From: Spirillospora sp. NPDC127506
GTDB lineage: Bacteria; Actinomycetota; Actinomycetes; Streptosporangiales; Streptosporangiaceae
Reading direction: 5' to 3' (one strand)
Length of the DNA: 64,000 nt
Assembly: GCA_040302145.1 (NCBI GenBank)
Contig: JBEORG010000021.1
Positions within the stretch are counted from its first letter, which is position 1. Each line of letters begins with the position of its first letter. Made by a program: the position numbers and the translations under genes. The notes under the pieces are model-generated. The model had not been told where the DNA came from. It did no database searches and saw nothing but the letters and a program-made list of their open reading frames with translations. Shown here piece after piece: positions 3,406-62,474 of the stretch.

Positions 3406-3596
3406 GCCCCACGCCCCCGCGCACCTGGAAGAAAGGCCCCGGAAGAGCCTTCCCCGCCGCGCACCCGCGTAGTCGATCAGCAACACACAGTTAACGCCCC
3501 GGAAAGGGTCGCCCCCGGCGGCGGGGCCGCCGGGGGCTCGGGTGAGGGACGGCCGGTGACGTCGGGCCGGCCGGTTCTCGGGGGTCGGTTGCGGGG

Positions 3597-4118
3597 CTAC
3601 GCCGCGGTGAAGTCGTAGGTGGCGGTCACCGTGGCGGAGCCGGGGCAGAGCCAGCCGCTGGTCTTGGCGACCGTCTGCTCGGTGAAGGTGGCGCTGACCG
3701 GAAGGTCGGTCCCGGTGAAGCTGCCGGTGATGTCGCCACCGTAGGTGCAGCCGATGGCGCTCATCGAGAACCCGTCGATGGAGGCGGTGCCGTTGTCGAG
3801 CTTGCCGCTCCACGGCAGGTTCTTGGGCGTGACCGTGACGCCGCAGCCGCCGACGGAGGCGGAGGTGATGGTGAGGTTGCCGGCGGCGTCGACGGTGCCG
3901 GACAGGGTGGAGCTCGTGCAGGAGGCGGGGATCCCCGCGTCGATGACCATGGTGCCGTTGAGGTCGGCGGTGAAGGGACCGGCGGTCCAGGCCAGGGCGG
4001 GGGTGGCCGTCAGGGCGACGGCGAGGGCGGCCGCGGCCGAGGCGGAGGCGATCGCGGCCGGCTTGCTGATGCGGGACAAGGGAGTCCTCATTTCGGACGG
4101 CGGGCGTCGCGCCTGCAC
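3597..4118 (-). CDS. Small secreted hypothetical protein (signal peptide, Thr/Ser/Gly-rich, 4 Cys)
   Basis: ORF with a signal-like segment (AAIASASAAAALAVALTATPALA) and codon bias consistent with coding. The start is uncertain: GTG at 4118 or the internal ATG at ~4091. Confidence 0.55.
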   Translation of the reverse strand: MQARRPPSEMRTPLSRISKPAAIASASAAAALAVALTATPALAWTAGPFTADLNGTMVIDAGIPASCTSSTLSGTVDAAGNLTITSASVGGCGVTVTPKNLPWSGKLDNGTASIDGFSMSAIGCTYGGDITGSFTGTDLPVSATFTEQTVAKTSGWLCPGSATVTATYDFTAA

Positions 4119-4578: not shown

Positions 4579-5547
4579 TCAGCCGAAGCGTTCGCGGAGG
4601 GCGGGCAGGAGGTCCGCCTCCGCCCAGGTGCGGAAGTCCTTCTGGCGGTCCGCGCCCGACTGGCAGAACGAGATGTGCGTGAAGCCCGCGTCCGCCCACT
4701 GCTGGACCGCCCGGACGTAGTCGCCGACGTCGTCGCCGCACGGGACGGACTCGACGACGTCCTCGGGACGGACGGTCTTCGTCGCCGCCTCGAAGTTCAC
4801 CGGCCCCGGGAGCTCCGCCATGACCTTCCAGGAGGGCGCCGAGAACCTCCAGACGCGGTGGGCGCGCCGCTCGCACTCCTCGTAGTCGTCGCCGAACGCG
4901 ACGGGGATCATCCCGTAGGCGGGCCTGCCCTCGCCTCCCTCGCGGCGGAACAGCTCGGCGACCTCGGCGACGGGCTGGTCGGAGACCAGGATGTCGGCGT
5001 GCCGCGCGGCCAGCCGCCCGGCCCGGGGGCCGAACGCGGCCATCCCGATCGGGACCGGGCGGTCGGGCACGTCGTAGAGCTTCGCCGAGTCCACCCGGTA
5101 GTGCCTGCCCCGGTAGTTGACGTAGTCGCCGCCGAACAGCGCCCGGATGATCTCCACGGCCTCCTCGAACATCTCGTGCCGGACGTCGGCCGGGGGCCAG
5201 TCCCGCCCGACGACGTGCTCGTTGAGGTTCTCGCCCGCGCCGAGCCCGAGGATGAACCGGCCGTCCGACAGGACGCCCATCGTCGCGGCCTTCTGCGCCA
5301 CCACGGCGGGGTGGTAGCGCATGGTCGGGCAGGTCACCAGCGTCATCAGCGGGACGCGCTGCGTGGCGTGGGCGAGCCCGCCCAGCACCGACCACGCGTA
5401 GGCCGAGTGACCCTGGTCCTCCAGCCACGGGAAGTAGTGGTCGGAGACGGTGACGTAGTCGAAGCCGGCCTCCTCGGCCTCCACGCCGTCGGTGATGAGC
5501 TGCTTGGGCGGTGTCTGCTCGCAGAGCAGCGAGTATCCGAATTCCAT
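4579..5547 (-). CDS. LLM-class F420-dependent oxidoreductase (luciferase-like monooxygenase family, G6PDH-like subgroup)
   Basis: 322 aa, MEFGYSLLCEQ...DHYFPWLEDQGHSAYAWSVLGGLA...ILGLGAGE. This is a typical LLM / F420-dependent architecture. Confidence 0.8.
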   Translation of the reverse strand: MEFGYSLLCEQTPPKQLITDGVEAEEAGFDYVTVSDHYFPWLEDQGHSAYAWSVLGGLAHATQRVPLMTLVTCPTMRYHPAVVAQKAATMGVLSDGRFILGLGAGENLNEHVVGRDWPPADVRHEMFEEAVEIIRALFGGDYVNYRGRHYRVDSAKLYDVPDRPVPIGMAAFGPRAGRLAARHADILVSDQPVAEVAELFRREGGEGRPAYGMIPVAFGDDYEECERRAHRVWRFSAPSWKVMAELPGPVNFEAATKTVRPEDVVESVPCGDDVGDYVRAVQQWADAGFTHISFCQSGADRQKDFRTWAEADLLPALRERFG

Positions 5548-5581
5548 GCGGCTCGCATACCCGCCGGGCGGGCCTGAACCG

Positions 5582-6118
5582 TCACTGCCCGAGGAGGTCC
5601 ATGAGGTCGTCGGCGTGCTCCTCCTCCTCGGCGAGGATCTCCTCCATGATGCGGCGCGTGGTGACGTCGCCGTCGCCGAGCCACCGGATGATCTCCTGGT
5701 AGGACTCGATGACGATCCGCTCGGCGACGAGGTTCTCCTGGAGCATGCCCTTCAGGTCGTTGTCGTCGAAGGTCGCGTAGGCGGTGTGGGAGCGCTCGGC
5801 GAGCGTCTCCGGGTCGAAGTCGGGGTCGCCGCCGAGCTGGCTGATGCGCTCGGCGGCGCGCATCGCGTGGTCGCGCTCCTCGTCCGCGTGCTCGCCGAAC
5901 TCCGCGGCGACCTGCGCCCGGTCGATGCCGGTGGCGCTGATCGCGTGCTGCGCGTAGCGCATCCAGCAGACGATCTCGGTGGCGAGGACGTCGTTGAGGA
6001 CGCCGATGACCTCCTCGGGACTCCTGCCGTAGTTCTCGGTCACCGGGCCGTCGGCCATCTTCGCGCGGGCGCGCTCCCGGATCGCCGCGACGTCGATGCT
6101 GAAGCTGCTGCCGTCCAT
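5582..6118 (-). CDS. Ferritin-like (bacterioferritin/Dps-rubrerythrin superfamily) protein
   Basis: 178 aa with a ferritin-like di-iron motif pattern (E...EERDH...ENLVAERIVIESYQE...EEEEHADDL). Confidence 0.65.
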   Translation of the reverse strand: MDGSSFSIDVAAIRERARAKMADGPVTENYGRSPEEVIGVLNDVLATEIVCWMRYAQHAISATGIDRAQVAAEFGEHADEERDHAMRAAERISQLGGDPDFDPETLAERSHTAYATFDDNDLKGMLQENLVAERIVIESYQEIIRWLGDGDVTTRRIMEEILAEEEEHADDLMDLLGQ

Positions 6119-6346
6119 GCCGCCTCCTCCTGATCATGCGCCTGGACGTAAGGCGTCCTACCTCGGATCGGCGGGCGCATGCGCCGGCCCGCGAAACGGC
6201 GTGAGACGACGTCTGCCGACCCCATACTTGGCCACGGTCCGTAACACGTGCTATACGTAGAGCTACCTCGCTACGACCTGTGGCGAGGAAGGGACATCCG
6301 GTATCCACCTTGAGATCCGGGCGTGACAAGGAAGAAAAGGAACCAC

Positions 6347-6643
6347 ATGAAGTCCTTCAGCTACACCGAGCTGGACCTGCTGGCCGGCGAGGTCCTGCCG
6401 GAGCGCGCCGTGCTGTCCACCCTCCTCGTTGGGGGCGGCGACGACACCGACAACCACAACTTCAACCTCAACGCCGGCCACGGCGGTGGCGACGACGACA
6501 GCACCGTCCTCTCCCAGCAGTCCTGCTCGGTCGTGAACAACCAGCAGAACGCCGGGCTCCTGTCGGCCCTGGGCGTCGCGTCCCAGAACCCGACCAGCAC
6601 CCACAGCTGCCTGCCGGGCACGGCGATCGCCAACAACGGCTGA
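6347..6643 (+). CDS. Small leader-bearing peptide A (98 aa), putative RiPP-precursor-like / secreted signalling peptide
   Basis: ATG preceded by a good RBS (aaaaggaaccacATG). N-terminal motif MKSFSYTELDLLAGEVLPERAVLS is paralogous to the next ORF. It has a Gly/Asp/Asn/Gln/Ser/Thr-rich body with 2 Cys (SQQSCSV...THSCLPGT). Confidence 0.6.
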   Translation: MKSFSYTELDLLAGEVLPERAVLSTLLVGGGDDTDNHNFNLNAGHGGGDDDSTVLSQQSCSVVNNQQNAGLLSALGVASQNPTSTHSCLPGTAIANNG

Positions 6644-6678
6644 GTCGCCTCGACGTAACGGCGGGCTCCGGCCCGCAA

Positions 6679-6712
6679 GGGAAGGGCTGGCGATCTCCTG
6701 CCAGCCCTTCCC
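6679..6712 (+). terminator. Strong GC hairpin (12-bp perfect stem gggaagggctgg / ccagcccttccc, 10-nt loop) between the two peptide genes; candidate intrinsic terminator/attenuator
   Basis: The inverted repeat is seen directly in the sequence, preceded by a second small hairpin gcgggc-tccg-gcccgc. It lies immediately 3' of peptide A. Confidence 0.5.
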
Positions 6713-6742
6713 CCTTCTTCCCGTCCACGCGAAAGCTGTCAC

Positions 6743-6988
6743 ATGAGCCACGAAAACCCTCAGAAACTCAGCTACGCCGACCTCGACCGGCTCGACGCGG
6801 AGGTCCTGCCGCCGCGGCTCGCCATGTCGGCGCCGCGCGGCGACGGCCACGGCTCCACGGTCGTCATGTACGCGTGCCAGGCCACCTACTCGCCGGGCAC
6901 CACCGGCCTGCTCGGGACGGGCCTGCTGGCGCAGCCGCCGCACTCCACGCTGACCTGCGTCCCGGCGACCGTGGTCGACCACCACTGA
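6743..6988 (+). CDS. Small leader-bearing peptide B (81 aa), paralogue of peptide A
   Basis: MSHENPQKLSYADLDRLDAEVLPPRLAMS shares the motif S-[YF]-x-x-L-D-x-L-x-x-E-V-L-P-x-R with peptide A. C-terminal HSTLTCVPAT resembles THSCLPGT of A. Its TGA stop overlaps the ATG of the downstream gene (ATGA). Confidence 0.6.
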   Translation: MSHENPQKLSYADLDRLDAEVLPPRLAMSAPRGDGHGSTVVMYACQATYSPGTTGLLGTGLLAQPPHSTLTCVPATVVDHH

Positions 6989-8331
6989 TGAGCACTCCAG
7001 CGATGCCGGACCTGGACGGCGGGGAGCCCCGGGCCCTCGTCCTGCCCGCGCTCACCGAGGGCGCCGAACTCGTCGGCGAGTTCAAGAACTCCGGCTACCG
7101 GGAACCGCCCCAGCTCGTCTGCCTGCCGAACCGGCAGCTCGTCCGGCTGCCGCCGCTGCTGTTCGGCGTCGCCAAGGCGCTGCACGAGCACCGCGACCTC
7201 GCGGGCGGCGACGTCCAGGAGGCGCTCGACCGGGTGGCGGACGCGGTGAGCGAGGAGGCCGGCGCCCGGCTGACCGCCGAGCAGGTCGTCTACCTCGTCG
7301 ACCGCAAGCTCGCCCCCCTCGGCGTCACCACCTACAGCGACGGCACGCCGGCGCCGCTGGTGAAGTCCGACCCGTGGCTGGCGCTGAAGTTCAAGGTCGC
7401 GGTCTTCCCCGAGTCGTTCACCTGGTTCATCGGCGGGCTGTTCGCCCGGCTGTTCCAGCCCCTGGTGATGGCGGTCCTCATCGCCGCCTTCCTGGTGAGC
7501 GAGGGGTGGCTGCTCACCTCCCGGTCGATGTCGGACGCGCTGTCGCTGGCGATCCTGAACCCGGTCAGCATCCTGCTGGTCATGGGGCTCGGGGTCGCCT
7601 CGTGCGCGTTCCACGAGGTCGGGCACGCTTCCGCCTGCCGGTACGGCGGCGTCCGGCCGGGCACCATGGGCTGCGGGATCTACCTGGTGTGGCCGGCGTT
7701 CTACACCGACATCACCGAGTCGTACCGGCTCGGCCGCGGCGGCCGGCTGCGCGCCGACCTCGCCGGCGTGTACTTCAACGCGATCTTCGTGGTGGCGCTG
7801 ACGCTGGTGTACCTGCAGACGGGCTTCGAGCCGCTGCTCGTGGCCGTCCTGTACGTCAACATCGAGATGATCCAGCAGCTGCTGCCGACGCTGCGGTTCG
7901 ACGGGTACTACATCATGTCCGACCTGGTCGGCGTCCCCGACCTGTTCAAGTACATCGGGCCGATCCTCAAGCGGGCGCTGCTGCGGCGCCCGGCCGACGC
8001 GCGGCTGAACGACCTCAAGCGCTGGCCGCAGGTCTTCGTCACCCTGTGGGTGCTGACCGTCATCCCGATGCTGGTGTTCCAGATCGGCCTCATCACCACC
8101 CAGATCCCCGCCCTGGTCGCCAAGGACTGGTGGATGATGCGCCGGCTCGCGGCGGAGGCGTCGGCGGGCGCGAGCCCGCTGGAGCTGATCACGTCCGGGC
8201 TGCAGATCATGCTGCTCGTGCTGCCGCTGGCCGGGCTGGCGCTCATCTTCTACGGGATCGGCCGCCGCCTCGTGCGGTGGGCCGTCCGCTACGTCCAGGG
8301 GCCCGCGCCGCAGCCGGTGGCGGACGCCTGA
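6988..8331 (+). CDS. Membrane zinc metalloprotease, M50/site-2-protease-like (HExxH in TM helix), with ~150-aa cytoplasmic N-terminal domain
   Basis: 447 aa with multiple hydrophobic segments. HEVGHASACRYGG matches the M50 HExxH motif and there is a downstream Asp-containing TM segment. It is translationally coupled to peptide B. Confidence 0.7.
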   Translation: MSTPAMPDLDGGEPRALVLPALTEGAELVGEFKNSGYREPPQLVCLPNRQLVRLPPLLFGVAKALHEHRDLAGGDVQEALDRVADAVSEEAGARLTAEQVVYLVDRKLAPLGVTTYSDGTPAPLVKSDPWLALKFKVAVFPESFTWFIGGLFARLFQPLVMAVLIAAFLVSEGWLLTSRSMSDALSLAILNPVSILLVMGLGVASCAFHEVGHASACRYGGVRPGTMGCGIYLVWPAFYTDITESYRLGRGGRLRADLAGVYFNAIFVVALTLVYLQTGFEPLLVAVLYVNIEMIQQLLPTLRFDGYYIMSDLVGVPDLFKYIGPILKRALLRRPADARLNDLKRWPQVFVTLWVLTVIPMLVFQIGLITTQIPALVAKDWWMMRRLAAEASAGASPLELITSGLQIMLLVLPLAGLALIFYGIGRRLVRWAVRYVQGPAPQPVADA

Positions 8332-11566: not shown

Positions 11567-12430
11567 ATGGGCGCGGCGGAGGCTCTCGCACAGGTGGCCG
11601 ACACGGACCGTTATCCGCTGACCGACCTGGACGGCGCCCGCCGGCGCGAGATCGTTTCCCGGACCCGGGACGAACTGGCGAAATCGGGGTGCTGCGTGCT
11701 GCCCGACTTCATTCGTCCCGCATTGCAGGAGGCGCTGCGCGCGGAATGCGCGGCGATCGCCCCGTCCGCCCATTATGACGTCGAAACGGTGAACGCCTAC
11801 AACATCGATGTCGGCACCCCATTGCCGGACGGCCATCCCGGGCGTATCACCGTCCAGCGGGGCAACGCGTTCGTCGCGCGCGACCGCATCCCGGCCGGGT
11901 CCATCGTGCACCGGCTCTATTCGAACGAGCTGTTCCAGCGGTTCGTGGCGAGCTGCTTCGGGCTGCCGCGCGTGCACGAGCTGGGCGACCCGCTGTCGGG
12001 GCTGGTCCTGAACGTGGTCAGGCCGGGGATGGAGCATCCCTGGCATTTCGACACCAACGAGTTCACCGTCAGCCTGCTCACGCAGGAGCCGGAGGAGGGG
12101 GGCGTCTTCGAGTACTGCCCGAACATCAGGACGGCGGAGCGGGAGAACTTCGCCGACGTCCGGGACGTGCTCACCGGGCGCGGCGACCGGTTCGTCCAGC
12201 GGCTCACGCTGCGGCCCGGCGACCTGCAGCTGTTCAAGGGGCGGTACTCGCTGCACCGGGTGAGCACGGTCCGGGGGGACACGGCGCGGCACACGGCGAT
12301 CTTCGCCTACAGCGAGCGCCCGGGGGTCATCGGCAGCGTCGCGCGGACGAGGCAGCTCTTCGGCCGCGTGCTGCCCGAGCACCTGGCGGCGGAGGGGCGC
12401 GCCGTCCGGGTCGACCGGTTGCTGGACTAG
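11567..12430 (+). CDS. Putative Fe(II)/2-oxoglutarate-dependent oxygenase (cupin fold, HxD...H)
   Basis: 287 aa. HPWHFDTNEF (HxD) and a distal His (LHRV), plus an Arg-containing C-terminal strand. Family assignment is by motif only. Confidence 0.5.
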   Translation: MGAAEALAQVADTDRYPLTDLDGARRREIVSRTRDELAKSGCCVLPDFIRPALQEALRAECAAIAPSAHYDVETVNAYNIDVGTPLPDGHPGRITVQRGNAFVARDRIPAGSIVHRLYSNELFQRFVASCFGLPRVHELGDPLSGLVLNVVRPGMEHPWHFDTNEFTVSLLTQEPEEGGVFEYCPNIRTAERENFADVRDVLTGRGDRFVQRLTLRPGDLQLFKGRYSLHRVSTVRGDTARHTAIFAYSERPGVIGSVARTRQLFGRVLPEHLAAEGRAVRVDRLLD

Positions 12431-13277: not shown

Positions 13278-15071
13278 GTGAACGCCAGCGAAGAACTCTC
13301 GTCCCGCACCTTCGGCAACGAGGCGAGCCTGCCGCGCGTGCCGCTGCCCACGCTCGACGCGACCTGCGAGCGGTTCATGGAATGGTGCGGGCCGCTGCTG
13401 ACCGACGACGAGCGCGCCGAGACGGAGGCGGCGCTCGCCGAGTTCGCCCGCCCGGACGGCCCCGGCCGCGTGCTGCACGCGGAGCTCGAACGCTACGACG
13501 CGAGCGAGGGCGTGCACAGCTGGCTCGACACGTTCTGGCCGTACCGGTACCTCGGCCGCCGCGACCGGATCGCGTTGAACGCGAACTTCTTCTTCCTGTT
13601 CAAGGAGTCGCCGGAGGGCCAGGTGGAGCGCGCCGCCGGGCTCATCGCCGGGGCGCTGGACTACAAGCTGCGGCTGGACGAGGAGCGGATCCCGCCGGCC
13701 GTGCAGCGCGGCCGCCCGCTGTCGATGGCGCAGAACCGGTTCCTGTTCTCCACGACGCGCATCCCCGGCGCCGAGCAGGACACCGTCCGGGCGCCCTACA
13801 CCGACGCGTGGCCCGGCCCGTCCCGCGCCCGGCACATCGTGGTCTTCTTCCGCGGCAACATGATCCGGATGGACGTGCTCGGCCCGGACGGCCGCCCCCA
13901 CACGCTGGACGAGCTGCGGGCCGGTCTGGGCACGATCCTGAAGGCGGAGCCGGCCGCGGAGCCGTCCACCGGGCACCTCACGACCAAGGCCCGCGCCGAG
14001 TGGGCGGCGAGCCGCGACGCGCTGCTGGCCCTCGGCAACGAGAAGGCGCTCGACGAGGTTGAGACGGCGCTGTTCTGCGTCTGCCTGGAGGACTTCGCCC
14101 CGGTGAGCGCCCTCGACGCCTGCGACCACCTCCTCCACGGCGACAGCGGCAACCGCTGGTTCGACAAGGCCGTGTCGTTCATCGTGTTCGGCGACGGGAC
14201 GGCGGGCGTCAACGTCGAGCACTGCGGCCTGGACGGCACCACGATCCTCGGCTTCGTCGACACCCTGCTCGGCACGTCCCCCGAGGAGGCGTCCCGGCGT
14301 TCGGGCGCCGCGCCGCAGGGGCTCCCCGCCATCGAGCCGATCGAGTTCGCCCTGGACGGCGCCATGCGGCGGGACATCGAGGACGCCGCGGCCTCGTTCG
14401 CCGCCTACGCCGCCGCGACCGCGACGACGACCGTGTCGTTCGACGACTTCGGCGCCGACGAGGCCAAGCGCCTGAAGACGTCGCCGGACGCGTTCGTCCA
14501 GATGGCCTACCAGCTCGCCCACAAGCGGGCGAAGGGCCTCACCGGCGCCACCTACGAGTCGATCGCCACCCGCCAGTACCGGCACGGGCGCACCGAGGCG
14601 ATGCGCGTCGTCACCCCCGAGGTGCTCGACTTCGTCGCGGCCATGGACGACCCGGCGGCCGGTCCCGAGGCCCGCCGGGACGCCTTCCGCGCCGCCGCCG
14701 AGGCCCATGTCCGCCGCGCGAAGGAGTGCCAGGCCGGGCAGGCGCCCGAGCAGCACCTCTGGGAGCTGCAGCTGATCGCGAAGCGGCGCGGGGCCGAGCT
14801 CGGCGTCACCGAGCCGCTGCCCCTCTTCGACACGCCCGGCTGGCTGAAGATGCGGGACGACTACCTCAGCACCAGCTCGGCGCCGTCCGCCAACATCCGG
14901 TACTTCGGGTTCGGCTCGACGAGCGAGCAGTGCATCGGCGTCGCCTACGTCCTCCTCCCGGACCGCTTCAACCTGTACCTGAGCACCCCGCGGCCGGTCG
15001 CCGGCGCGATGCACGTGTTCGCCGACAGGCTCCGCGAGGCCGTCCGGGAACTCCGCGACCTCCTCTCCTGA
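13278..15071 (+). CDS. Choline/carnitine O-acyltransferase family protein
   Basis: 597 aa. VNVEHCGLDGT matches the catalytic His motif (EHSxxDG) of carnitine/choline acyltransferases. The length and the C-terminal STPR region fit the family. Confidence 0.65.
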   Translation: MNASEELSSRTFGNEASLPRVPLPTLDATCERFMEWCGPLLTDDERAETEAALAEFARPDGPGRVLHAELERYDASEGVHSWLDTFWPYRYLGRRDRIALNANFFFLFKESPEGQVERAAGLIAGALDYKLRLDEERIPPAVQRGRPLSMAQNRFLFSTTRIPGAEQDTVRAPYTDAWPGPSRARHIVVFFRGNMIRMDVLGPDGRPHTLDELRAGLGTILKAEPAAEPSTGHLTTKARAEWAASRDALLALGNEKALDEVETALFCVCLEDFAPVSALDACDHLLHGDSGNRWFDKAVSFIVFGDGTAGVNVEHCGLDGTTILGFVDTLLGTSPEEASRRSGAAPQGLPAIEPIEFALDGAMRRDIEDAAASFAAYAAATATTTVSFDDFGADEAKRLKTSPDAFVQMAYQLAHKRAKGLTGATYESIATRQYRHGRTEAMRVVTPEVLDFVAAMDDPAAGPEARRDAFRAAAEAHVRRAKECQAGQAPEQHLWELQLIAKRRGAELGVTEPLPLFDTPGWLKMRDDYLSTSSAPSANIRYFGFGSTSEQCIGVAYVLLPDRFNLYLSTPRPVAGAMHVFADRLREAVRELRDLLS

Positions 15072-55329: not shown

Positions 55330-56139
55330 TCAGCCGCCGGACCGGATGCGCGCGTCGTACTCCTTGCGCGCGTCGGGGTCGTACTCCAGGAAGATCTTGT
55401 CGAGCCCGAGCCGGCGGGACGTCGCCTGCCGGAACCGCTCGGGGAGGAGCGCGCCCAGCTTGATCTGCGTGCCGAGCTTCTTCGGCACCGCGACCTGCGG
55501 GCGCGGCCTGCCGATCAGCTCGACGATGGCGGCGGCGATCTCCTCCGGCTCGCAGTTCCTCTGCCCCTTGGGGCTGCGGGTGCCGGCGACCAGCTCGGTG
55601 TTGGTGAACGTCGGCAGGACGGCGCTGACGTGGACGCCCCGGTCCTGGACCTCCAGCCGGGTCGCCTCGGTGAACCCGACGACGGCGGCCTTGCTGGCGT
55701 TGTAGAGGGCGAGGCCGGGCGTGAACATGACGCCCGCGAGCGAGGCGATGTTGATGACGTGCCCCGACTCGCGCGGCAGCATCCGGCCGAGGGCGAGCTT
55801 GGTGCCGAGCATGACGCCGTGCACGTTGATGTCGATGCAGCGGCGGGCGTCGGCGTCGCTCTCGTCGGTGACCGGGCCGATCGGCATGATCCCGGCGTTG
55901 TTGATCAGGACGTCGAGCGGCCCGGCGGCCTCCTCGGCCCGGTCGAGGAACGCGGTGAACGACTCGCGGGACGTGACGTCCACCACGAGGCCGGTGACGC
56001 CGAGCGACTCGGCGGCGTCCTTGACGGCGGCCTCGTCGATGTCGCCGATGACGACGGTGGCGCCCTTGGCCTTCAGGGCGCGGGCCGTGGCGAGGCCGAT
56101 CCCCCGCGCGGCTCCGGTGATGGCGACGACCTTGCTCAT
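55330..56139 (-). CDS. SDR-family short-chain dehydrogenase/reductase
   Basis: MSKVVAITGAARGIGLATA (TGxxxGxG), NNAG, YNASK. Confidence 0.85.
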   Translation of the reverse strand: MSKVVAITGAARGIGLATARALKAKGATVVIGDIDEAAVKDAAESLGVTGLVVDVTSRESFTAFLDRAEEAAGPLDVLINNAGIMPIGPVTDESDADARRCIDINVHGVMLGTKLALGRMLPRESGHVINIASLAGVMFTPGLALYNASKAAVVGFTEATRLEVQDRGVHVSAVLPTFTNTELVAGTRSPKGQRNCEPEEIAAAIVELIGRPRPQVAVPKKLGTQIKLGALLPERFRQATSRRLGLDKIFLEYDPDARKEYDARIRSGG

Positions 56140-57491
56140 TTCTGCTCCAGGGGTTCGAGCCGGACGGGAAGCCCGTCCTTCGGCGAAGGGAGGGACGTGG
56201 TGTCCAGGGGCCATTCGTACCGCGCGGGGACGCTCCAGCGGTAGCGCTGGAGCACCTGGTGCAGGATCGTTTTGACCTGCATCCCGGCGAAGTGCAGCCC
56301 GATGCACTTGTGCGCGCCGCCGCCGAACGGGGCCCACGCGTACTTGTGGACCCTGTCCTCGCGGCGTTCCGGGGAGAACCGCCCGGGGTCGAACCGCTCC
56401 GGGTCCGGCCACCACTGCGCCATGTGGTGGTTGCTGAGCATCGGCACCACGACCATCGTGCCGGCCGGGACGTGGTAGCCGAGGATGGAGGTGTCCTTGA
56501 CGACCTTGCGGGGCAGCGCCGGGACGGGCGGCAGGATGCGCAGCGACTCCTTCATCACCATGTCGATGCCGGTGAAGGAGCCGAGGTCGTCGTAGGACGG
56601 CTGCGCCTTGCCGAGGCTCAGCGACTCCTCGCGCAGCCGCTCCTGCCATTCGGGGAACTTGGCCAGGTGGTAGGCCATCGTCGTCAGCGTGATGGTGGTC
56701 GTGTCGTGCGCCGCCATCAGCGCGAAGATCATGTGGTTGACGACGTCCTCGTCGGTGAACCGCGCGCCGTCGTCGGTCTCGGCCGCGCAGAGGGCGGCGA
56801 ACAGGTCGTCGCCGCCGTCGCGGCGCTTGGCGGGCAGGTGCCGGTAGAAGAACTCCTCCAGCGCCTTGCGGGCCTTCAGCCCCTTGTGCCAGCGCAACCC
56901 CGGGACGGGGAACCGCACGTACGCCGTCCCCGCCCGGACGGCGTCGATGAACGCTCCGTTGACCCGCGCGCGCTCGGCGTCGTCCAGTCGCACGCCCATG
57001 AACACGTCCACGGCGAGGTCGAGCGTGAGCTGCTTGATGCTGTCGTAGACCTTGAAGCCGGGGCCGGGCCGCCACGACTCGACGCCCCGGACGATGCCGG
57101 GCGCCATCGCCTCCATGTACGCGCGCAGCCGCGCCGGGGTGAACGCCTGCTGCATGATGCGGCGGTGGTGCAGGTGCTCCTCGAAGTCGAGCAGCATGAT
57201 GCCGCGCCGGAAGAACGGCCCGATGTAGTAGCTCCACGCGGGCCCGCTCGCGAACGCCTTGTCCCGGTTGACCAGGACGACCTCGGCGGCCTCCGGCCCC
57301 TGGACGGTGCAGGTGCGCTGCCCGAGCAGCCAGCCCCAGGCGACCGGCCCGTACTGCTCGTACCGCTTCCTGGCCATGCCGATCGGGTCGCGCATCACCG
57401 CGAGCGTGCTGCCGATGTAGGGCACACCGGGCACGCCGGGGACCGGTTTCAGGCCGCTGCCCTGCGGCGGCGGCGCGAGGACGCTGGTCAT
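56136..57491 (-). CDS. Cytochrome P450 monooxygenase
   Basis: FGGGAHKCIGLHFAGMQ heme-binding loop, ExxR (ESLR), 451 aa. ATGA-coupled to the SDR gene. Confidence 0.9.
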   Translation of the reverse strand: MTSVLAPPPQGSGLKPVPGVPGVPYIGSTLAVMRDPIGMARKRYEQYGPVAWGWLLGQRTCTVQGPEAAEVVLVNRDKAFASGPAWSYYIGPFFRRGIMLLDFEEHLHHRRIMQQAFTPARLRAYMEAMAPGIVRGVESWRPGPGFKVYDSIKQLTLDLAVDVFMGVRLDDAERARVNGAFIDAVRAGTAYVRFPVPGLRWHKGLKARKALEEFFYRHLPAKRRDGGDDLFAALCAAETDDGARFTDEDVVNHMIFALMAAHDTTTITLTTMAYHLAKFPEWQERLREESLSLGKAQPSYDDLGSFTGIDMVMKESLRILPPVPALPRKVVKDTSILGYHVPAGTMVVVPMLSNHHMAQWWPDPERFDPGRFSPERREDRVHKYAWAPFGGGAHKCIGLHFAGMQVKTILHQVLQRYRWSVPARYEWPLDTTSLPSPKDGLPVRLEPLEQK

Positions 57492-57570
57492 GGATCCCTC
57501 CGGACGCGCGCAACAAATAAGCGAAATCTGTTGCTTTGTTCTAACGCAGCGGACGCCCGTAAGTCCAGAC

Positions 57571-60500
57571 TTATCGCCGGTGACTTGCGCGTGAGCGCGT
57601 CTCGCGGGCCGCCGCGCCGCGCAGCAGCCGGCGCCGCGCGGTCTCGGTGAGCGGCCGGTACGCGCCCGACCGGTCGCGGTAGTAGGTCAGCCCGTCGCCG
57701 GCGGCGGGGACGCCCTCCTCGCGCAGCGGGGCGGTCCAGAGCCGCCGCCCGGCGGTGACGGGCACCTCGTCCACGACCCGGACGAGCGCGGGCCGCAGCT
57801 CCGGCTCCACCCGCAGCAGCGCCTCCGTCAGGTCGATCGCCTTGACCGTCTCCTCCGCGTCCCGCAGGCTCACGGCGGCGGCGGCCAGCTCGGTGTCCCC
57901 CGCGGGGATCCCGTAGACGGCGACGGTGTCGACGTACGGCAGGTCGCCGAGCGCGTCCCGGATCGGGCCGGGCGGGACGATGCCCTCGGCGGTGCCGATC
58001 AGTTCGGCCTCCCGCCCGACGAGCCAGTAGTCCCCGTCGGCGTCCCGGCGGAACAGGTCCCCGGTGATCGTCCAGGCGTCCTCGGGCCGGAACACGCCCC
58101 GCACGACGCGCGACGCGGAGCCGGCCGCCGACGGCCGGACCCGCGCGAGCAGCATGCCGATCTCCCCCGGCTCGCAGCGGACCGCGAATCCGTCGGGGCC
58201 TTCGGCGAGCCGCCCGTTCTCCAGGTCGTACCGGGCGAGCCGCACCTCGGCGCTGCCGGGCAGCGGCCGGCCCAGCGAGCCGGGCTTCTTGCCGCTCAGG
58301 TTGACCAGCACCGCCTCGCCCTCGGTCGAGGCGTAGAACTCCAGCACCCGCGCGGGCGCGAACCGCTCCTCGACCCGCCGCCACAGCCCGCGCGGCATCC
58401 CGGACCCGATGAACAGCCGGATCGCGTGGTGCCGCTCGGCCGGGTTCGGCGGCGCGTTCACGAGGTCGCGCAGCAGCGTCCAGGTGTAGGACGCGACGGT
58501 CACGCCGTAGCGGCGCGCCTCGTCCCAGAAGGCCTCCGGGTCGATGTCCCGGTGGGGGGACGACTCCCCGCCGGGGACCGCGGCGGAGGCGCCGGCCAGT
58601 GCGAGCCGCGCCCCGCCGGCGACGGCGCCGCCGAGGCTCATCAGCAGCGCGGACGGGTGCTGGAGCGGCGTGATGCTGTAGACGGTGTCGGACGGCGACA
58701 GGGCGGCCGACGAGGCGGTCCCGAACGCCGACAGGGCCCATCTGCGGTTCGTGATCCGGCTGGCCCGCAGGTGCTCGCCGTCTCCCCGGAACACCACGAA
58801 GGCGAGGTCGCCGGCCCGCCCCGGGTTGGGCCGGTACCACCCGGGCAGCTCGACCTGCGCGGGGTCGATGCGCTCCATGTCCATGAGCGTCCCGCGGTCG
58901 CCGCGCCCGGCGCCGCCGAGCAGGTACCCCTGGACGCCGTCCAGCTTCGCGGCCTCCGCCGCGTGCTCGGGGTCGGCGATGACCCGCGTGATCCCGCTGA
59001 GCCGCGCCTCGGCCGCGGGGTCCCCGTCGGGGCGCAGCAGGACCGCCACGGCGCCGAGCCGGCTCAGCGCGGCGACCAGGGCGAGCGCGGTGGGCCGGGT
59101 CCCCATCAGCACGCCGACCGCGTCGCCGTGCCGCACGCCGATGTGGATCAGCCCGCGCACGACGGCGTCGATGCGCCGCCTGGCCGCGTCGTGGGTGTGC
59201 CCGCGCCCCCGGTACAGGAAGAAGACCTCGCCGGGCCTGCGGCGGGCCTGCTCGTCCAGGAGCAGCCCCATCGACATGCGCGTGTCGGACTGGATGCGCT
59301 CCAGCCGCGCCAGCCGCGGCAGGTTCTGCGCGGCCTCCCCGGTCAGCTGCCGGCTTCCGCGGGCGACCCGCGCGGCCGTCCGCAGCGCGGACCGCGCGGC
59401 GCTCGTCCCGATGCCCGCGGCGAGCTGGAGCCCGTACCCGGCGGGGCCGCCGGGCAGGTCGGCGGTCTCGGCCTCCTCGTCCCCGGCGACCGGGGCGACG
59501 ATCTCGGGCAGTTCGCCCTCGCCCTCCCGCCACAGCGCCCACGACGCGACGGCGGGCCAGGTCTGCGCGATCGCGAGGCCGCCCACGACGAGCCCGAAGT
59601 GCCCGGCCCTGAGCGACGCCTCGTACACCTGGGCGCGCGGCGCCGCCCGCCTGATGCCGCGGACCATCGGCGGCGGCGCGATCTCGTCGACCTCGCCGAC
59701 GAACGTGAGCACGGGGCAGGTGATGTCGGCGAGCGTCACGAGCCGGTCGCCGATGACGAAGCCGCCGGTGAGCATCCGGTTGTGCTGGATGAACTGGCGG
59801 AGGAACTCGGCGAGCGCGGGGCCGGGCCACGACACCCACCCCTCCCGCTCCAGGAACCGCCGCTGCCGTTCCCTCTGCGCCAGCCGCTCCCGGTCGTGCA
59901 GCTGCAGGATGAAGTCGACCCGCGACCGCACCGACTTGACGGGGCTGAGGACCTGGAAGCCGAGCCGGGTGACCCATCCGGGCACGGCGAAGCCGCCGAG
60001 CACCCGGTCGGGGATCCGCTCGACGCCCTCGGACGCGAGCCAGCCGGGCAGCCCGAACGGGAGCCCCCGGCTGGTGTCGGCCGGGCTGCCGAACGTCACG
60101 ATCGACTCGATGCCGTCGCTGCGCCGGTACGCGGCCGCCTGGTAGACGAACATGCCGCCCTGCGAGTACCCGGCGAGGTGGACGTCGCGTCCGGTCGCCT
60201 TGCGGATCCGGTCGACGGCGTCGCTGACGGCCAGCACGTGGTCGCTGATGTTCCGCTCGAGCCCGCCGGGCTCCCGCTCGGGCGCCCCGAAGTCGACGAC
60301 CCACGGGTCGACGCCCAGGTCGTGCAGGACCTTCACCGCACTGACCCGCGAGGAGATGTCGTACACCTCCGCGGTGATCATCAGCGGCGGGACGAGCAGC
60401 ATCACGGGCCCGCCCGCCGCGTCCGGGAAGTAGTGCCGCAGCCGGTACACCCGCTGCTCGGTCACCACCTCGCACGGGGAGGCGTCCTCGTCGGTGTCGA

Positions 60501-60645
60501 ACCCCCCGAACCGGGCGACCTCCAGGGCGTTCTGGGCGGTGGAGCCCAGGCGGGCGCCCACCGAAACGAGCGAACCGAATCGGGGGGTGAGGGAGGTCGT
60601 CCCCCCTCGGACGGCTCGGAACAGCGTCTTGGCAACAGCCGGCAT
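57571..60645 (-). CDS. Fusion protein: N-terminal alpha/beta-hydrolase (PHA-synthase/PhaC-N-like) domain + C-terminal AMP-binding acyl-CoA synthetase/ligase domain
   Basis: The N-terminal half has an alpha/beta hydrolase fold (LAGYSQGG). The C-terminal half is an adenylate-forming enzyme (YRGRGHTHDA..., ITGDLFRRDADGDYWLVGR). An alternative start is 60673. Confidence 0.7.
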   Translation of the reverse strand: MPAVAKTLFRAVRGGTTSLTPRFGSLVSVGARLGSTAQNALEVARFGGFDTDEDASPCEVVTEQRVYRLRHYFPDAAGGPVMLLVPPLMITAEVYDISSRVSAVKVLHDLGVDPWVVDFGAPEREPGGLERNISDHVLAVSDAVDRIRKATGRDVHLAGYSQGGMFVYQAAAYRRSDGIESIVTFGSPADTSRGLPFGLPGWLASEGVERIPDRVLGGFAVPGWVTRLGFQVLSPVKSVRSRVDFILQLHDRERLAQRERQRRFLEREGWVSWPGPALAEFLRQFIQHNRMLTGGFVIGDRLVTLADITCPVLTFVGEVDEIAPPPMVRGIRRAAPRAQVYEASLRAGHFGLVVGGLAIAQTWPAVASWALWREGEGELPEIVAPVAGDEEAETADLPGGPAGYGLQLAAGIGTSAARSALRTAARVARGSRQLTGEAAQNLPRLARLERIQSDTRMSMGLLLDEQARRRPGEVFFLYRGRGHTHDAARRRIDAVVRGLIHIGVRHGDAVGVLMGTRPTALALVAALSRLGAVAVLLRPDGDPAAEARLSGITRVIADPEHAAEAAKLDGVQGYLLGGAGRGDRGTLMDMERIDPAQVELPGWYRPNPGRAGDLAFVVFRGDGEHLRASRITNRRWALSAFGTASSAALSPSDTVYSITPLQHPSALLMSLGGAVAGGARLALAGASAAVPGGESSPHRDIDPEAFWDEARRYGVTVASYTWTLLRDLVNAPPNPAERHHAIRLFIGSGMPRGLWRRVEERFAPARVLEFYASTEGEAVLVNLSGKKPGSLGRPLPGSAEVRLARYDLENGRLAEGPDGFAVRCEPGEIGMLLARVRPSAAGSASRVVRGVFRPEDAWTITGDLFRRDADGDYWLVGREAELIGTAEGIVPPGPIRDALGDLPYVDTVAVYGIPAGDTELAAAAVSLRDAEETVKAIDLTEALLRVEPELRPALVRVVDEVPVTAGRRLWTAPLREEGVPAAGDGLTYYRDRSGAYRPLTETARRRLLRGAAARETRSRASHRR

Positions 60646-60701
60646 CGTCGACCTCTCGCAGAGTCAACGACATGGTGTCCTGTCATCAGCGGCTTAAGCA
60701 A

Positions 60702-62348
60702 TCAGCCGACGACGCGCGCGCCCTCCATGCGACCGGCCTGGAGCCGCTCCCACATGTACCTGCGGCGCGGCTTGCCGCTGGACGTCCGCTGGATGAGCCC
60801 GGACCCGACGACGACCGTGATCTCCACGTCGTCCCCGACGCGGCGCCGCAGCGTCTCCCGCACGGCGGGCACCCATTCCTCGCTCTGCGTCTCGGCGAAC
60901 AGCGCGAGCCCCTTCCGCCCGGCCCCCGGCACGCCGACCACCACGACGCGCCCCTTGCCGAGCCCGCTCACCTCGGCGATCTTGGATTCGAGGTCCTCGA
61001 CGTAGACGGACCGGCCGCGGACCTTGATGCTGTCGCCCATCCGCCCGAGGACGAACAGCTGCCCCTCGTAGAAGAAGCCCGCGTCCCCGGTGTAGACCTT
61101 CCCGTCCATGAACCGCGTCGACTTGGCCTCGGCGCCCGCGTAGTACCCGGGACAGGCCGAGGCGCCGCCGACCACGATCTCCCCGAGCAGGCCCTCGCCC
61201 AGCTCGTTGCCGTCGTCGTCGACGATCGCGACGGGGACGTCGTCCTCCGGGGTCCCGCACCCGACGACCCACCCGGCCTTGGCGCCGATCGACCGGGGTC
61301 CGAGCCGGTGCTGCTCCAGGATGCGCACCGGCCGCCCGAACGACAGCGCCTCGGGGTCGGGCCGGACGGCGAGGGGTTCGCGCTGCTCGTTGTCCATGGT
61401 GACCAGCAGGGTCGTCTCGGCCATGCCGTAGGCGGGCTTGAACATCGCCCGGGAGAACCCGAACGGCTCGACGAGCTGCGCGAACACCTCCAGCGCATGC
61501 GGGTCGATCGGCTCGGCGCCGATCAGCGCCATCTTCCACCCGGACAGGTCGAGCCCTTCGAGCTGCTCCGGCTTGACCCGCCGCGCGCAGTAGGCGTACG
61601 CGAACGGCGGAGCCGCGGTGTGCTGGGCCTCGGCGAAGCACCGGATCCACCGTGCCGGGTCGCGGATGAAGTGGTCGGGCCGCATGAGCCGCAGCATCCC
61701 CTGCCGCGCGATCGGGGTGATGAACGTCCCGATGAGCCCCATGTCGTGGTAGAGCGGCAGCCACGTGGCCACCACGTCGCCGTCCTCGTACCCGGCCATC
61801 CGCGCGATCAGCTCGCTGTTGGCCTCCAGGTTCTCCCAGGTGACCATGACGCCGCGCGGGGCGCCGCTGGACCCGGAGGTGAACTGGAGCAGCGCCAGCT
61901 CGCCGGCGGGCTGCACGTCCGCCTCCGCGCCCTGGCACGGCTGCCACGGCTCACCGCTCAGCCCGGCCTGGTCCATGGCGCGCCCGGCGTACTCGTTCAG
62001 GTCCTTGGAGGCGACGACGAGCGCGGGCGACGCCTGCCGCAGGATCGCCGCGACGTGCGCCACGTAGTCGTCGCCGTCCTGGAACAGCGGCGGCGTGATC
62101 AGGCAGACGGTGGCCCCGGCGGCCCACACCCCGTAGTACGTCTCTATGCAGGTGAAGTCCGTGGGCAGGATGAGGCAGACGACATCGCCGGGCCGGACGC
62201 CCTCCTCGATCAGCGCCCCGGCGGTGCGCCGTGCGGCGGCCGCCAGCGCGCCGTAGTCGCGGAACTCCCAGCCGCCGTCGTCCGTCGCCAGGTGCACGCC
62301 GCGTCCGGTGTTCGGCTTCTCCAGCCATGCGCGCAGCGCAGATGCCAT
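60702..62348 (-). CDS. AMP-binding enzyme, fatty-acyl-AMP ligase (FAAL)-like
   Basis: LQFTSGSSGAPRGVMVTWENL (A3 core), YGMAETT, YTGDAGF..GRMGDSIKVRGR, ~548 aa. Confidence 0.8.
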   Translation of the reverse strand: MASALRAWLEKPNTGRGVHLATDDGGWEFRDYGALAAAARRTAGALIEEGVRPGDVVCLILPTDFTCIETYYGVWAAGATVCLITPPLFQDGDDYVAHVAAILRQASPALVVASKDLNEYAGRAMDQAGLSGEPWQPCQGAEADVQPAGELALLQFTSGSSGAPRGVMVTWENLEANSELIARMAGYEDGDVVATWLPLYHDMGLIGTFITPIARQGMLRLMRPDHFIRDPARWIRCFAEAQHTAAPPFAYAYCARRVKPEQLEGLDLSGWKMALIGAEPIDPHALEVFAQLVEPFGFSRAMFKPAYGMAETTLLVTMDNEQREPLAVRPDPEALSFGRPVRILEQHRLGPRSIGAKAGWVVGCGTPEDDVPVAIVDDDGNELGEGLLGEIVVGGASACPGYYAGAEAKSTRFMDGKVYTGDAGFFYEGQLFVLGRMGDSIKVRGRSVYVEDLESKIAEVSGLGKGRVVVVGVPGAGRKGLALFAETQSEEWVPAVRETLRRRVGDDVEITVVVGSGLIQRTSSGKPRRRYMWERLQAGRMEGARVVG

Positions 62349-62474
62349 CGGTGTTCCCCTTCAACATGATCACGGTCACCCACGTGACTCGCGGGTAACT
62401 TCACCAGGACCGGCGCGCAGTAGTCAACTGGTTGGATCGGTCAAAGAGACCGGGCGGTCATTTGACGGAAACGT

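Follow-up and report, generated by a model that had tools for sequence, protein, structure and literature searches.

A 64,000-nucleotide stretch of contig JBEORG010000021.1 from Spirillospora sp. NPDC127506 (GenBank assembly GCA_040302145.1; hereafter the window) encodes two small paralogous peptides, A and B, followed directly by a 447-aa membrane metalloprotease. On balance, we interpret these three genes as a self-contained module for ribosomal-peptide maturation, in which a RiPP recognition element (RRE; RiPP, a peptide made by ribosomes and modified after translation) guides removal of the leader. As judged from sequence comparison, the products are probably secreted, disulfide-looped peptides that act in a bacteriocin-like manner or as a signal. 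The interpretation is carried by the recurrence of leader peptides ahead of homologous proteases, by an RRE that is fused to the protease in its structure model, and by the homology of the latter to the RiPP proteases of the daptide and YydH/LiaK groups, which supports a leader-removal module. If true, the main surprise would be a protease-only route for peptide maturation, and perhaps for export. The genes and protease features concerned are as follows.

6347-6643, plus strand: gene for the peptide A precursor (98 aa), with a leader at about residues 1-28, a Gly/Asp/Asn/His-rich linker and a core containing Cys60 and Cys88
6743-6988, plus strand: gene for the peptide B precursor (81 aa), with a leader as in A, a short linker and the two-Cys core YACQATYSPGTTGLLGTGLLAQPPHSTLTCVPATVV
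6988-8331, plus strand: gene for the membrane zinc metalloprotease (447 aa), with a predicted RRE and a core like that of site-2 proteases (S2Ps)
7045-7332, plus strand: predicted RRE (PqqD-like) domain, about residues 20-115, three strands then three helices
7612-7626, plus strand: HEVGH zinc-binding/catalytic motif (H209, E210, H213) at the end of membrane helix 2, invariant in 30 homologues
7876-7905, plus strand: second S2P motif, Q297-L-L-P300-T-L-R-F-D305-G306, with Q297, P300, D305 and G306 invariant in 30 homologues

The protease and its pairing with leader peptides

The initial annotation of the window had assigned the 447-aa product to the M50/S2P group on the basis of an HEVGH motif in a transmembrane helix. 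The placement of the motif was borne out, with residues 209-213 falling in a model helix that spans residues 192-219 and, by hydropathy, at the end of the second of the five or six segments predicted to cross the membrane; a cytoplasmic RRE would put HExxH at that segment's cytoplasmic end. HExxH and NxxPxxxxDG are the signature motifs of S2Ps, the Asp of the second being the third zinc ligand, and the match to NxxPxxxxDG found here has Gln where the S2P consensus has Asn. The family assignment itself stood in part: it is supported by the motifs, by NCBIfam similarity and by an S2P membrane-core fold, which in our view outweigh the failure of Pfam PF02163 to score above its cut-off (10 bits vs 27.2), a result that the initial annotation had named as a ground for refutation. 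The best match to any hidden Markov model (HMM) was NCBIfam daptide_HExxH (NF041824; 85.2 bits vs an equivalog cut-off of 300, E = 4.9e-24, residues 84-319), to which a distant relative from locus L061 scored 108 bits, and the NCBIfam YydH/LiaK model (NF058609) gave 49.6 bits vs a cut-off of 225 (E = 4.1e-13). A sequence search of the PDB with the protease returned no match.

In the AlphaFold model of the protease (mean predicted local distance difference test score, pLDDT, 75.5), three strands and three helices form an N-terminal domain at about residues 27-111, with pLDDT mostly 84-93; membrane helices and a beta-hairpin (residues 227-240) come after it. The model thereby indicates an RRE fused N-terminally to an S2P membrane core, which is the architecture of the daptide protease MpaP. 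This domain, which the initial annotation had missed, provides the strongest argument that the peptides are substrates of the protease, and the co-conservation of leader and domain suggests that the RRE binds the leader.

The pairing of peptides and protease, first seen in the window, extends to related genomes. We sampled 80 loci encoding protease relatives, giving 81 sequences together with the window, and leader peptides lie upstream of the protease in 73 of them, in one to six copies each; in total, about 130 peptides with the same leader precede homologous proteases. At least 592 stretches of species-representative genomes fit the search, this being the number confirmed among 600 pattern matches. 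When the open reading frames (ORFs) of the 81 sequences were clustered, no gene besides the protease and the peptides was co-conserved across genera, an extra 'conserved' cluster being dismissed as Arg/Pro-rich shadow reading frames. No tailoring gene was found within +/-6 kb in any genus. The protease accordingly keeps its proposed place as the sole evident partner of the peptides, with neither a tailoring enzyme nor a transporter co-conserved.

Three core types share this arrangement. Type 1, that of the window, occurs in Actinomadura, Spirillospora, Streptomyces, Amycolatopsis and Actinocatenispora. Type 2 is associated with protease relatives 39-46% identical, in Acidimicrobiia, Gaiellales, Solirubrobacterales, Dormiibacterota and related metagenome-assembled genomes (MAGs; L060-L078 and L080), where two to five tandem peptide copies of 66-97 aa stand ahead of the protease (for example L061:4719-5937, L066:4991-5870 and L075:1645-2520; in L065 the flanking is divergent). 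These peptides join the same leader to a Cys-free, Ala/Asn-rich core (...GEELP[DE]R[AE]AMSLINANVAAPVNAAVAANVLSD...) that is near-invariant (SLINANVAAPVNAAVAANVLSD..A.A.A.Q) and is represented by hundreds of metagenomic variants. Their proteases are longer (541-593 aa) and are followed by one or two conserved secreted/lipoprotein genes, present in 16 and 8 loci (L061:7719-8513 and L061:8510-9343), which match no Pfam or NCBIfam family. Type 3, found in a Pseudonocardiaceae MAG (L079:3103-5653), comprises five tandem peptides encoded upstream of a homologue of the protease; their leader is the variant VELLPARTV[LM]S, and their cores are rich in Gly and free of Cys (GGRGGNGGQGGTGG...). Because the pairing of leader and RRE-S2P protease is invariant while the cores are interchangeable, these loci provide strong comparative evidence that the protease recognises the leader.

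A 42-column profile of the leader region, which includes residues just past the leader, brought up 1917 proteins at E<=10; its top 120 hits are unnamed proteins of 66-73 aa, and the eight sequences read among these are type 2 peptides. Searches with the protease gave 9576 cluster representatives at E<=1e-3 and 1079 at E<=1e-30, the top 150 being almost all near full-length matches, many with C-terminal extensions. The closest protease match, 99% identical, is labelled 'Actinomadura sp.'. Most relatives are longer than 447 aa (450-990 aa, including those of L032, L043, L047, L053 and L057 and most of the top 150), and no Pfam domain was detected in the extra C-terminal sequence of the five locus proteases scanned (545-655 aa), so that the Actinomadura form looks like a minimal version. 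The module is also carried by an 82.6-kb linear plasmid of Streptomyces changanensis (NZ_CP102333.1, L081), with precursors of 75 aa (3524-3751) and 86 aa (5422-5682) and a 549-aa protease (5953-7602). All three are annotated as hypothetical, and RefSeq here annotates peptide ORFs of this kind as coding sequences (CDS).

Precursor anatomy, selection and expression signals

Both peptide ORFs were confirmed by reading the sequence at 6347-6643 and 6743-6988, as was the one-base overlap between the TGA of B (6986-6988) and the ATG of the protease ORF, a stop/start arrangement retained in 18 loci. The good ribosome-binding site credited to A was likewise recovered, as the purine-rich AAGGAAGAAAAGGAA; since regions of this type are kept even in Actinomadura loci without the upstream in-frame GTG, the ATG at 6347 is the likely start. 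The GC content at third codon positions (GC3) is 0.96 in both ORFs, matching the true genes of the window. When the 64 kb are translated in all six frames, [DE]x[LIVM]PxRxx[LM]S appears just twice, exactly in A and B, and indels among peptide relatives are multiples of three. We found 114 relatives of peptide A, all named hypothetical apart from a single automatic UniRef label, and orthologues of B at the equivalent position in Actinomadura and Spirillospora loci. Neither A nor B contains a signal-peptide-like hydrophobic stretch (maximum KD19 hydropathy 1.24) or, by hydropathy, a transmembrane segment.

The N-terminal leader shared by the two paralogues, already recognised in the initial annotation, is kept in the wider set of about 130 copies, where its consensus reads [ST][YF]x[ED]L[DE]xLxGE[VE]LP[ED]Rx[VA][LM]S. 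Conservation is high at L-5 (126/130), G0 (114/130), E1 (125/130), L3 (127/130) and S10 (117/130), and L-2 is kept in 96/130; P4 and R6 are invariant because the search pattern demands them, and their invariance is hence no evidence. Beyond the leader, the single conserved C-terminal Cys motif described at first gave way to a two-Cys core, with exactly two Cys in 100 of 102 cores, usually 27-28 residues apart and with 8-9 residues after the second. The type 1 core comprises about 45 residues (GxTTVVxAC(Q)...GLLGxLGL...S(S/T)xTCxPAxV...) and follows a low-complexity linker; measured from the end of LPxR to eight residues before the first Cys, and thus taking in conserved residues directly after the LPxR motif, the linker spans 6-51 residues (median 25). 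In a low-confidence model of A, long strands at residues 53-64 and 84-96 carry Cys60 and Cys88 in antiparallel register (60+88 = 64+84), a geometry consistent with a disulfide-stapled hairpin.

To assess selection, 11 orthologous Actinomadura loci were compared with the window. The ratio of nonsynonymous to synonymous substitution rates (dN/dS) was 0.25 for the A leader, 1.07 for the A linker, 1.31 for the A core, 0.46 for the B core and 0.45 for the whole protease, values that are meaningful only relative to each other because extreme GC3 depresses dS. Peptide A would on these figures combine a conserved leader with a variable core, the pattern typical of RiPP and bacteriocin precursors. Neither A, B nor their relatives of the three core types matched a Pfam or NCBIfam precursor model at E<=1, leaving the earlier analogy with lanthipeptide and FxLD leaders without HMM support; the name 'SapB/AmfS family lantipeptide', attached automatically by UniRef to one homologue, was rejected on the same ground. 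Lan genes, like a precursor-model match, were absent from the locus and window scans for lanthipeptide membership.

Conserved elements also surround the A gene.

6228-6262, plus strand: promoter/operator-like block, with TTGGCC at 6228-6233, an 18-nt spacer and the invariant GCTATACGTAGAG at 6250-6262; 34 copies
6266-6288, plus strand: 5' hairpin, with a 9-bp stem (CCUCGCUAC/GUGGCGAGG) and a 5-nt loop, just 3' of the invariant motif
6328-6342, plus strand: ribosome-binding region of A, AAGGAAGAAAAGGAA, purine-rich, read from the sequence and kept across Actinomadura loci
6661-6712, plus strand: 3' double hairpin, with a 6-bp stem and then a 14-bp stem at 6679-6712

The promoter-like block is near-invariant in the 34 copies upstream of A-type peptides, and conservation over about 125 nt upstream of A far exceeds that of coding third positions. 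The 9-mer TATACGTAG occurs 31 times in about 1 Mb (loci plus window), lies about 95 nt upstream of the A-type start wherever the ATG is assignable, and is found nowhere else. A generic scan for sigma-70 promoters and terminators called neither this upstream motif nor the hairpins; the conservation and position of the block suggest a promoter role. When the sequences were folded individually, the 5' hairpin was predicted in 34 of 34 copies, with stems of 6-10 bp that vary while pairing is retained (for example CCUCACUGCG/CGCGGUGAGG and ACCGCUGCG/CGCAGCGGG), and the RNAalifold consensus for the upstream alignment was weak owing to misalignment of the stems by MAFFT. Rfam and tRNA scans of the window gave no match, so the conserved 5' region corresponds to no known RNA family.

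On the 3' side of A, the segment 6640-6745 has a minimum free energy of -52.8 kcal/mol (z = -4.9), with 0 of 200 shuffles folding as well. In most Actinomadura loci the A-type gene is followed by a small and a large hairpin, and in Streptomyces and Amycolatopsis strong hairpins also lie 3' of the precursors. The double hairpin is likely a terminator or attenuator and mRNA stabiliser, which the terminator scan missed because a U-tract is absent. The signals travel with the gene in Actinomadura sp. K4S16 (L014:2925-5929), where five tandem A-type cassettes accompany one B-type cassette: every A-type copy has its own TATACGTAG-type motif, mismatched at one position in two copies, together with hairpins on the 5' and 3' sides, indicating that the whole cassette of about 580 bp was duplicated. 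From these signals we infer that A is made from a short, stable and abundant transcript, and B and the protease at a lower level, with B translationally coupled.

Proposed mechanism and relation to known systems

Leader binding, the cleavage site, export, the disulfide and biological activity are inferred steps in the following scheme. Peptide A would be supplied by its own strong, hairpin-bracketed transcript, and peptide B would be translated along with the protease. The cytoplasmic RRE would bind the leader, most likely via [YF]x[ED]L[DE]xL, and would thereby present GE[VE]LPxRxx[LM]S to the HExxH/DG active site at the inner membrane face, where the leader would be cut off. The released part, consisting of the linker and the core of about 45 residues, could exit via the protease itself, as proposed for EpeP/YydH, or via an unlinked exporter; outside the cell, the two Cys may pair, forming a loop of about 28 residues that spans a beta-hairpin.

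Several elements of this scheme have counterparts in daptide biosynthesis. MpaP, the daptide leader peptidase, combines an RRE and an S2P in one protein and takes off a leader that contains ELExMEAP (daptide paper), and L(-7) and M(-4) of this leader are needed for RRE-dependent processing, as assayed with the MpaB RRE (daptide paper). Our module resembles the daptide clusters in its N-terminal RRE fused to an intramembrane S2P metalloprotease, in the several similar precursors that adjoin it, in its occurrence in Actinomycetota, and in an acidic-Leu leader motif ending in Pro (ELExMEAP in daptides, ELDxLxGExLP here); the Leu pair of ELDxL (L-5 and L-2) even has the same i, i+3 hydrophobic spacing as L(-7)/M(-4). 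The daptide motif read by an RRE is therefore a closer analogue of the leader than the lanthipeptide/FxLD leaders. Unlike in daptides, the protease scores 85 bits vs the cut-off of 300, and the module contains neither MpaB/C/D/M (decarboxylase pair MpaB/MpaC, PF00465; PLP aminotransferase; methyltransferase) nor a linked ABC transporter. The precursors differ as well: those of daptides have an invariant C-terminal Thr and a helical core of branched-chain aliphatic residues, whereas those described here have a linker and a two-Cys core, end in ...ANNG (A) and ...VDHH (B), and mostly have His or Gly at the last aligned core positions.

The likeness to YydH of the Bacillus epipeptide locus, which the initial annotation had proposed with the proviso of a missing epimerase, holds in terms of significant similarity (E = 4.1e-13) and of the absence of that enzyme here, and falls short in that the score stays below the NF058609 cut-off (50 bits vs 225). 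In yydFGHIJ/epeXEPAB, as here, the gene for a small precursor adjoins that for an M50-type membrane protease with a role in leader removal (a proposed one in our case); unlike those loci, our module has neither a radical-SAM epimerase nor an ABC transporter. The YydH/LiaK model, 246 positions long, matches the membrane core of our protease alone (residues 184-314) and so apparently includes no RRE. EpeP/YydH is thought to cleave and to export its peptide (review PMC10885120).

More distant systems can also be compared with the module. The M50 proteases SpoIVFB, RseP and MjS2P act on membrane-anchored anti- or pro-sigma factors, whereas the substrates here would be soluble leader peptides recruited by the RRE, and our protease stays below the Pfam M50 cut-off and carries neither a PDZ nor a CBS domain. 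PqqD is a stand-alone RRE, and in lasso peptide B1/E systems the RRE stands alone or is fused to a cysteine leader peptidase, whereas here it is fused to a membrane metalloprotease; the lasso leader motif, YxxPxL, also differs from the leader described here. The class II bacteriocins provide a parallel in their unmodified, often disulfide-containing peptides, in their conserved leader, variable core and plasmid carriage, and in the use of one dedicated membrane protein that removes the leader (and, in class II, also exports the peptide). They depart from it in using a C39 cysteine protease-ABC exporter and a double-glycine leader in place of an RRE metalloprotease and the present leader. No immunity gene was recognised at the module. 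Overall, the system follows the RiPP leader-peptidase logic of daptides and epipeptides, yet is a member of neither.

Literature and family searches found no paper or curated family describing the module, although the searchable literature is incomplete and a prior description is possible. Fusions of an RRE with an S2P protease have so far been known from daptide clusters, as the last step of a pathway of several enzymes; the present case differs in that such a protease stands alone with its presumed substrates, both in a metagenomic sister group of larger size and in actinobacterial genomes numbering in the hundreds. The three genes constitute a simple system in which to study the transfer of a soluble peptide from an RRE to an active site within the membrane, and offer a direct test of peptide export by such proteases. 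They also point to new families of probably secreted peptides from antibiotic-producing genera, furnish a leader/protease pair that is reusable for peptide engineering, and can guide the annotation of peptides and proteases that are nearly all labelled 'hypothetical'. A more ambitious proposal, to which we give little credence as a whole, is that these peptides form an undescribed and widespread actinobacterial class whose sole dedicated machinery is an RRE-guided intramembrane metalloprotease performing both leader removal and membrane passage, independently of Sec and ABC systems, with products that are disulfide-stapled hairpins in Actinomadura and Streptomyces and near-invariant, Ala/Asn-rich and perhaps surface-assembling in Acidimicrobiia and Gaiellales.

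Alternative explanations and genomic surroundings

A number of observations weigh against an RRE-guided leader-removal module with secreted products. The protease scores below threshold with Pfam M50 (PF02163; 10 bits vs a gathering cut-off of 27.2, E = 0.54) and under both equivalog cut-offs (300 for daptide, 225 for YydH/LiaK), and a Foldseek search of its model against the PDB returned nothing significant. The model of peptide A, from which the hairpin geometry is drawn, is of low confidence (pLDDT 55), and the dN/dS near 1 in the A linker and core might equally reflect weak constraint. No transporter linked to the module was found, which leaves export unexplained. The very high core conservation in the type 2 sister group is unlike that of typical antimicrobial peptides. 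Lastly, a disulfide-formation gene follows the protease in one locus only: in Amycolatopsis sp. PS_44_ISF1 (L053:7765-8229), a VKOR-family gene (89.6 bits) lies directly 3' of the protease, ahead of a DUF1345 gene, and fits a disulfide in the two-Cys peptides.

These observations leave room for other explanations. The peptides could be true RiPPs tailored by enzymes from other parts of the genome, such as a synthetase of the lanthipeptide type that would modify the Ser/Thr/Cys-rich core or a different enzyme lacking an RRE, with the local protease serving just as the final leader peptidase. The Ser/Thr-rich cores and their two invariant Cys with Ser/Thr nearby (SSxTCxP) would suit such chemistry, one homologue bears the automatic SapB/AmfS label (which has no HMM support), and RiPP proteases and precursors are at times unlinked from modifying genes (review PMC10885120). 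We nevertheless consider this explanation rather unlikely, given that no lanthipeptide, FxLD, NHLP or other precursor HMM matches at E<=1, that tailoring genes are absent from the large ORFs of the 64-kb window and within +/-6 kb in any genus, that the module is transferred as one block, in one case onto a plasmid without obvious tailoring genes alongside, and that the Cys-free cores of the sister group share the same leader-protease pair. We give still less weight to a role of the peptides as membrane or cell-surface building blocks or regulators, in which leader removal would license assembly in a prepilin-like manner, or as substrates or decoys in signalling by regulated intramembrane proteolysis. 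The sister group speaks for such a role, with cores (SLINANVAAPVNAAVAANVLSD...) almost invariant over hundreds of metagenomic variants, two to five tandem copies, and conserved secreted/lipoprotein genes downstream (16 and 8 loci), as do the purifying selection on the B core, similar to that on the protease, and an envelope-stress-type pair of PspC-domain kinase and LuxR-type regulator in one Amycolatopsis locus. The peptides, however, have no transmembrane segment, the A core evolves fast, as in secreted effectors, the kinase/regulator neighbour was seen once, and nothing connects peptides of the window type with the secreted partners encoded in sister-group loci.

High-GC genomes also yield many spurious ORFs, and A and B could in principle be chance frames or remnants beside a protease with an unrelated housekeeping substrate. 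We regard this explanation as extremely improbable, and conservation effectively refutes it: frame, leader and Cys pair persist in over 100 copies from different genera with indels in multiples of three, GC3 is 0.96, the ribosome-binding site, promoter motif and hairpins are conserved, and the leader motif occurs nowhere else in the window, while RefSeq annotates such ORFs as CDS.

Around the module, the window encodes a ferritin-like protein (5582-6118, minus strand), a luciferase-like oxidoreductase, two esterases, a SpoIIE-type phosphatase and others. The initial report that no Lan, YcaO or radical-SAM gene lies nearby was confirmed for these neighbours and for the ten largest other ORFs of the window. 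As a candidate tailoring enzyme, the luciferase-like oxidoreductase (4579-5547) was rejected: it lies on the opposite strand, beyond the ferritin-like gene, and is syntenic only within Actinomadura. In Amycolatopsis eburnea (L043:7684-9712), a PspC-domain histidine kinase (HisKA_3) and a LuxR/GerE-type regulator follow closely 3' of the protease on the same strand, a pair that recalls the LiaRS envelope-stress response to epipeptides. Both this pair and the VKOR gene were rejected as parts of the system, since tblastn found each in one locus only (L043 and L053, respectively). PADLOC defence models gave no match.

Farther along the window, a HalD-like Fe/2OG enzyme (11567-12430; 57 bits) is encoded near a full-length choline/carnitine O-acyltransferase family protein (13278-15068; 537 bits), a family that is mostly eukaryotic, and the block around these genes recurs in about 23 Actinomadura loci. 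At 56136-62357 on the minus strand, a cytochrome P450 gene adjoins those of two AMP-binding enzymes, one of about 1029 aa, which may belong to a gene cluster for small-molecule biosynthesis that has no connection with the peptide module.

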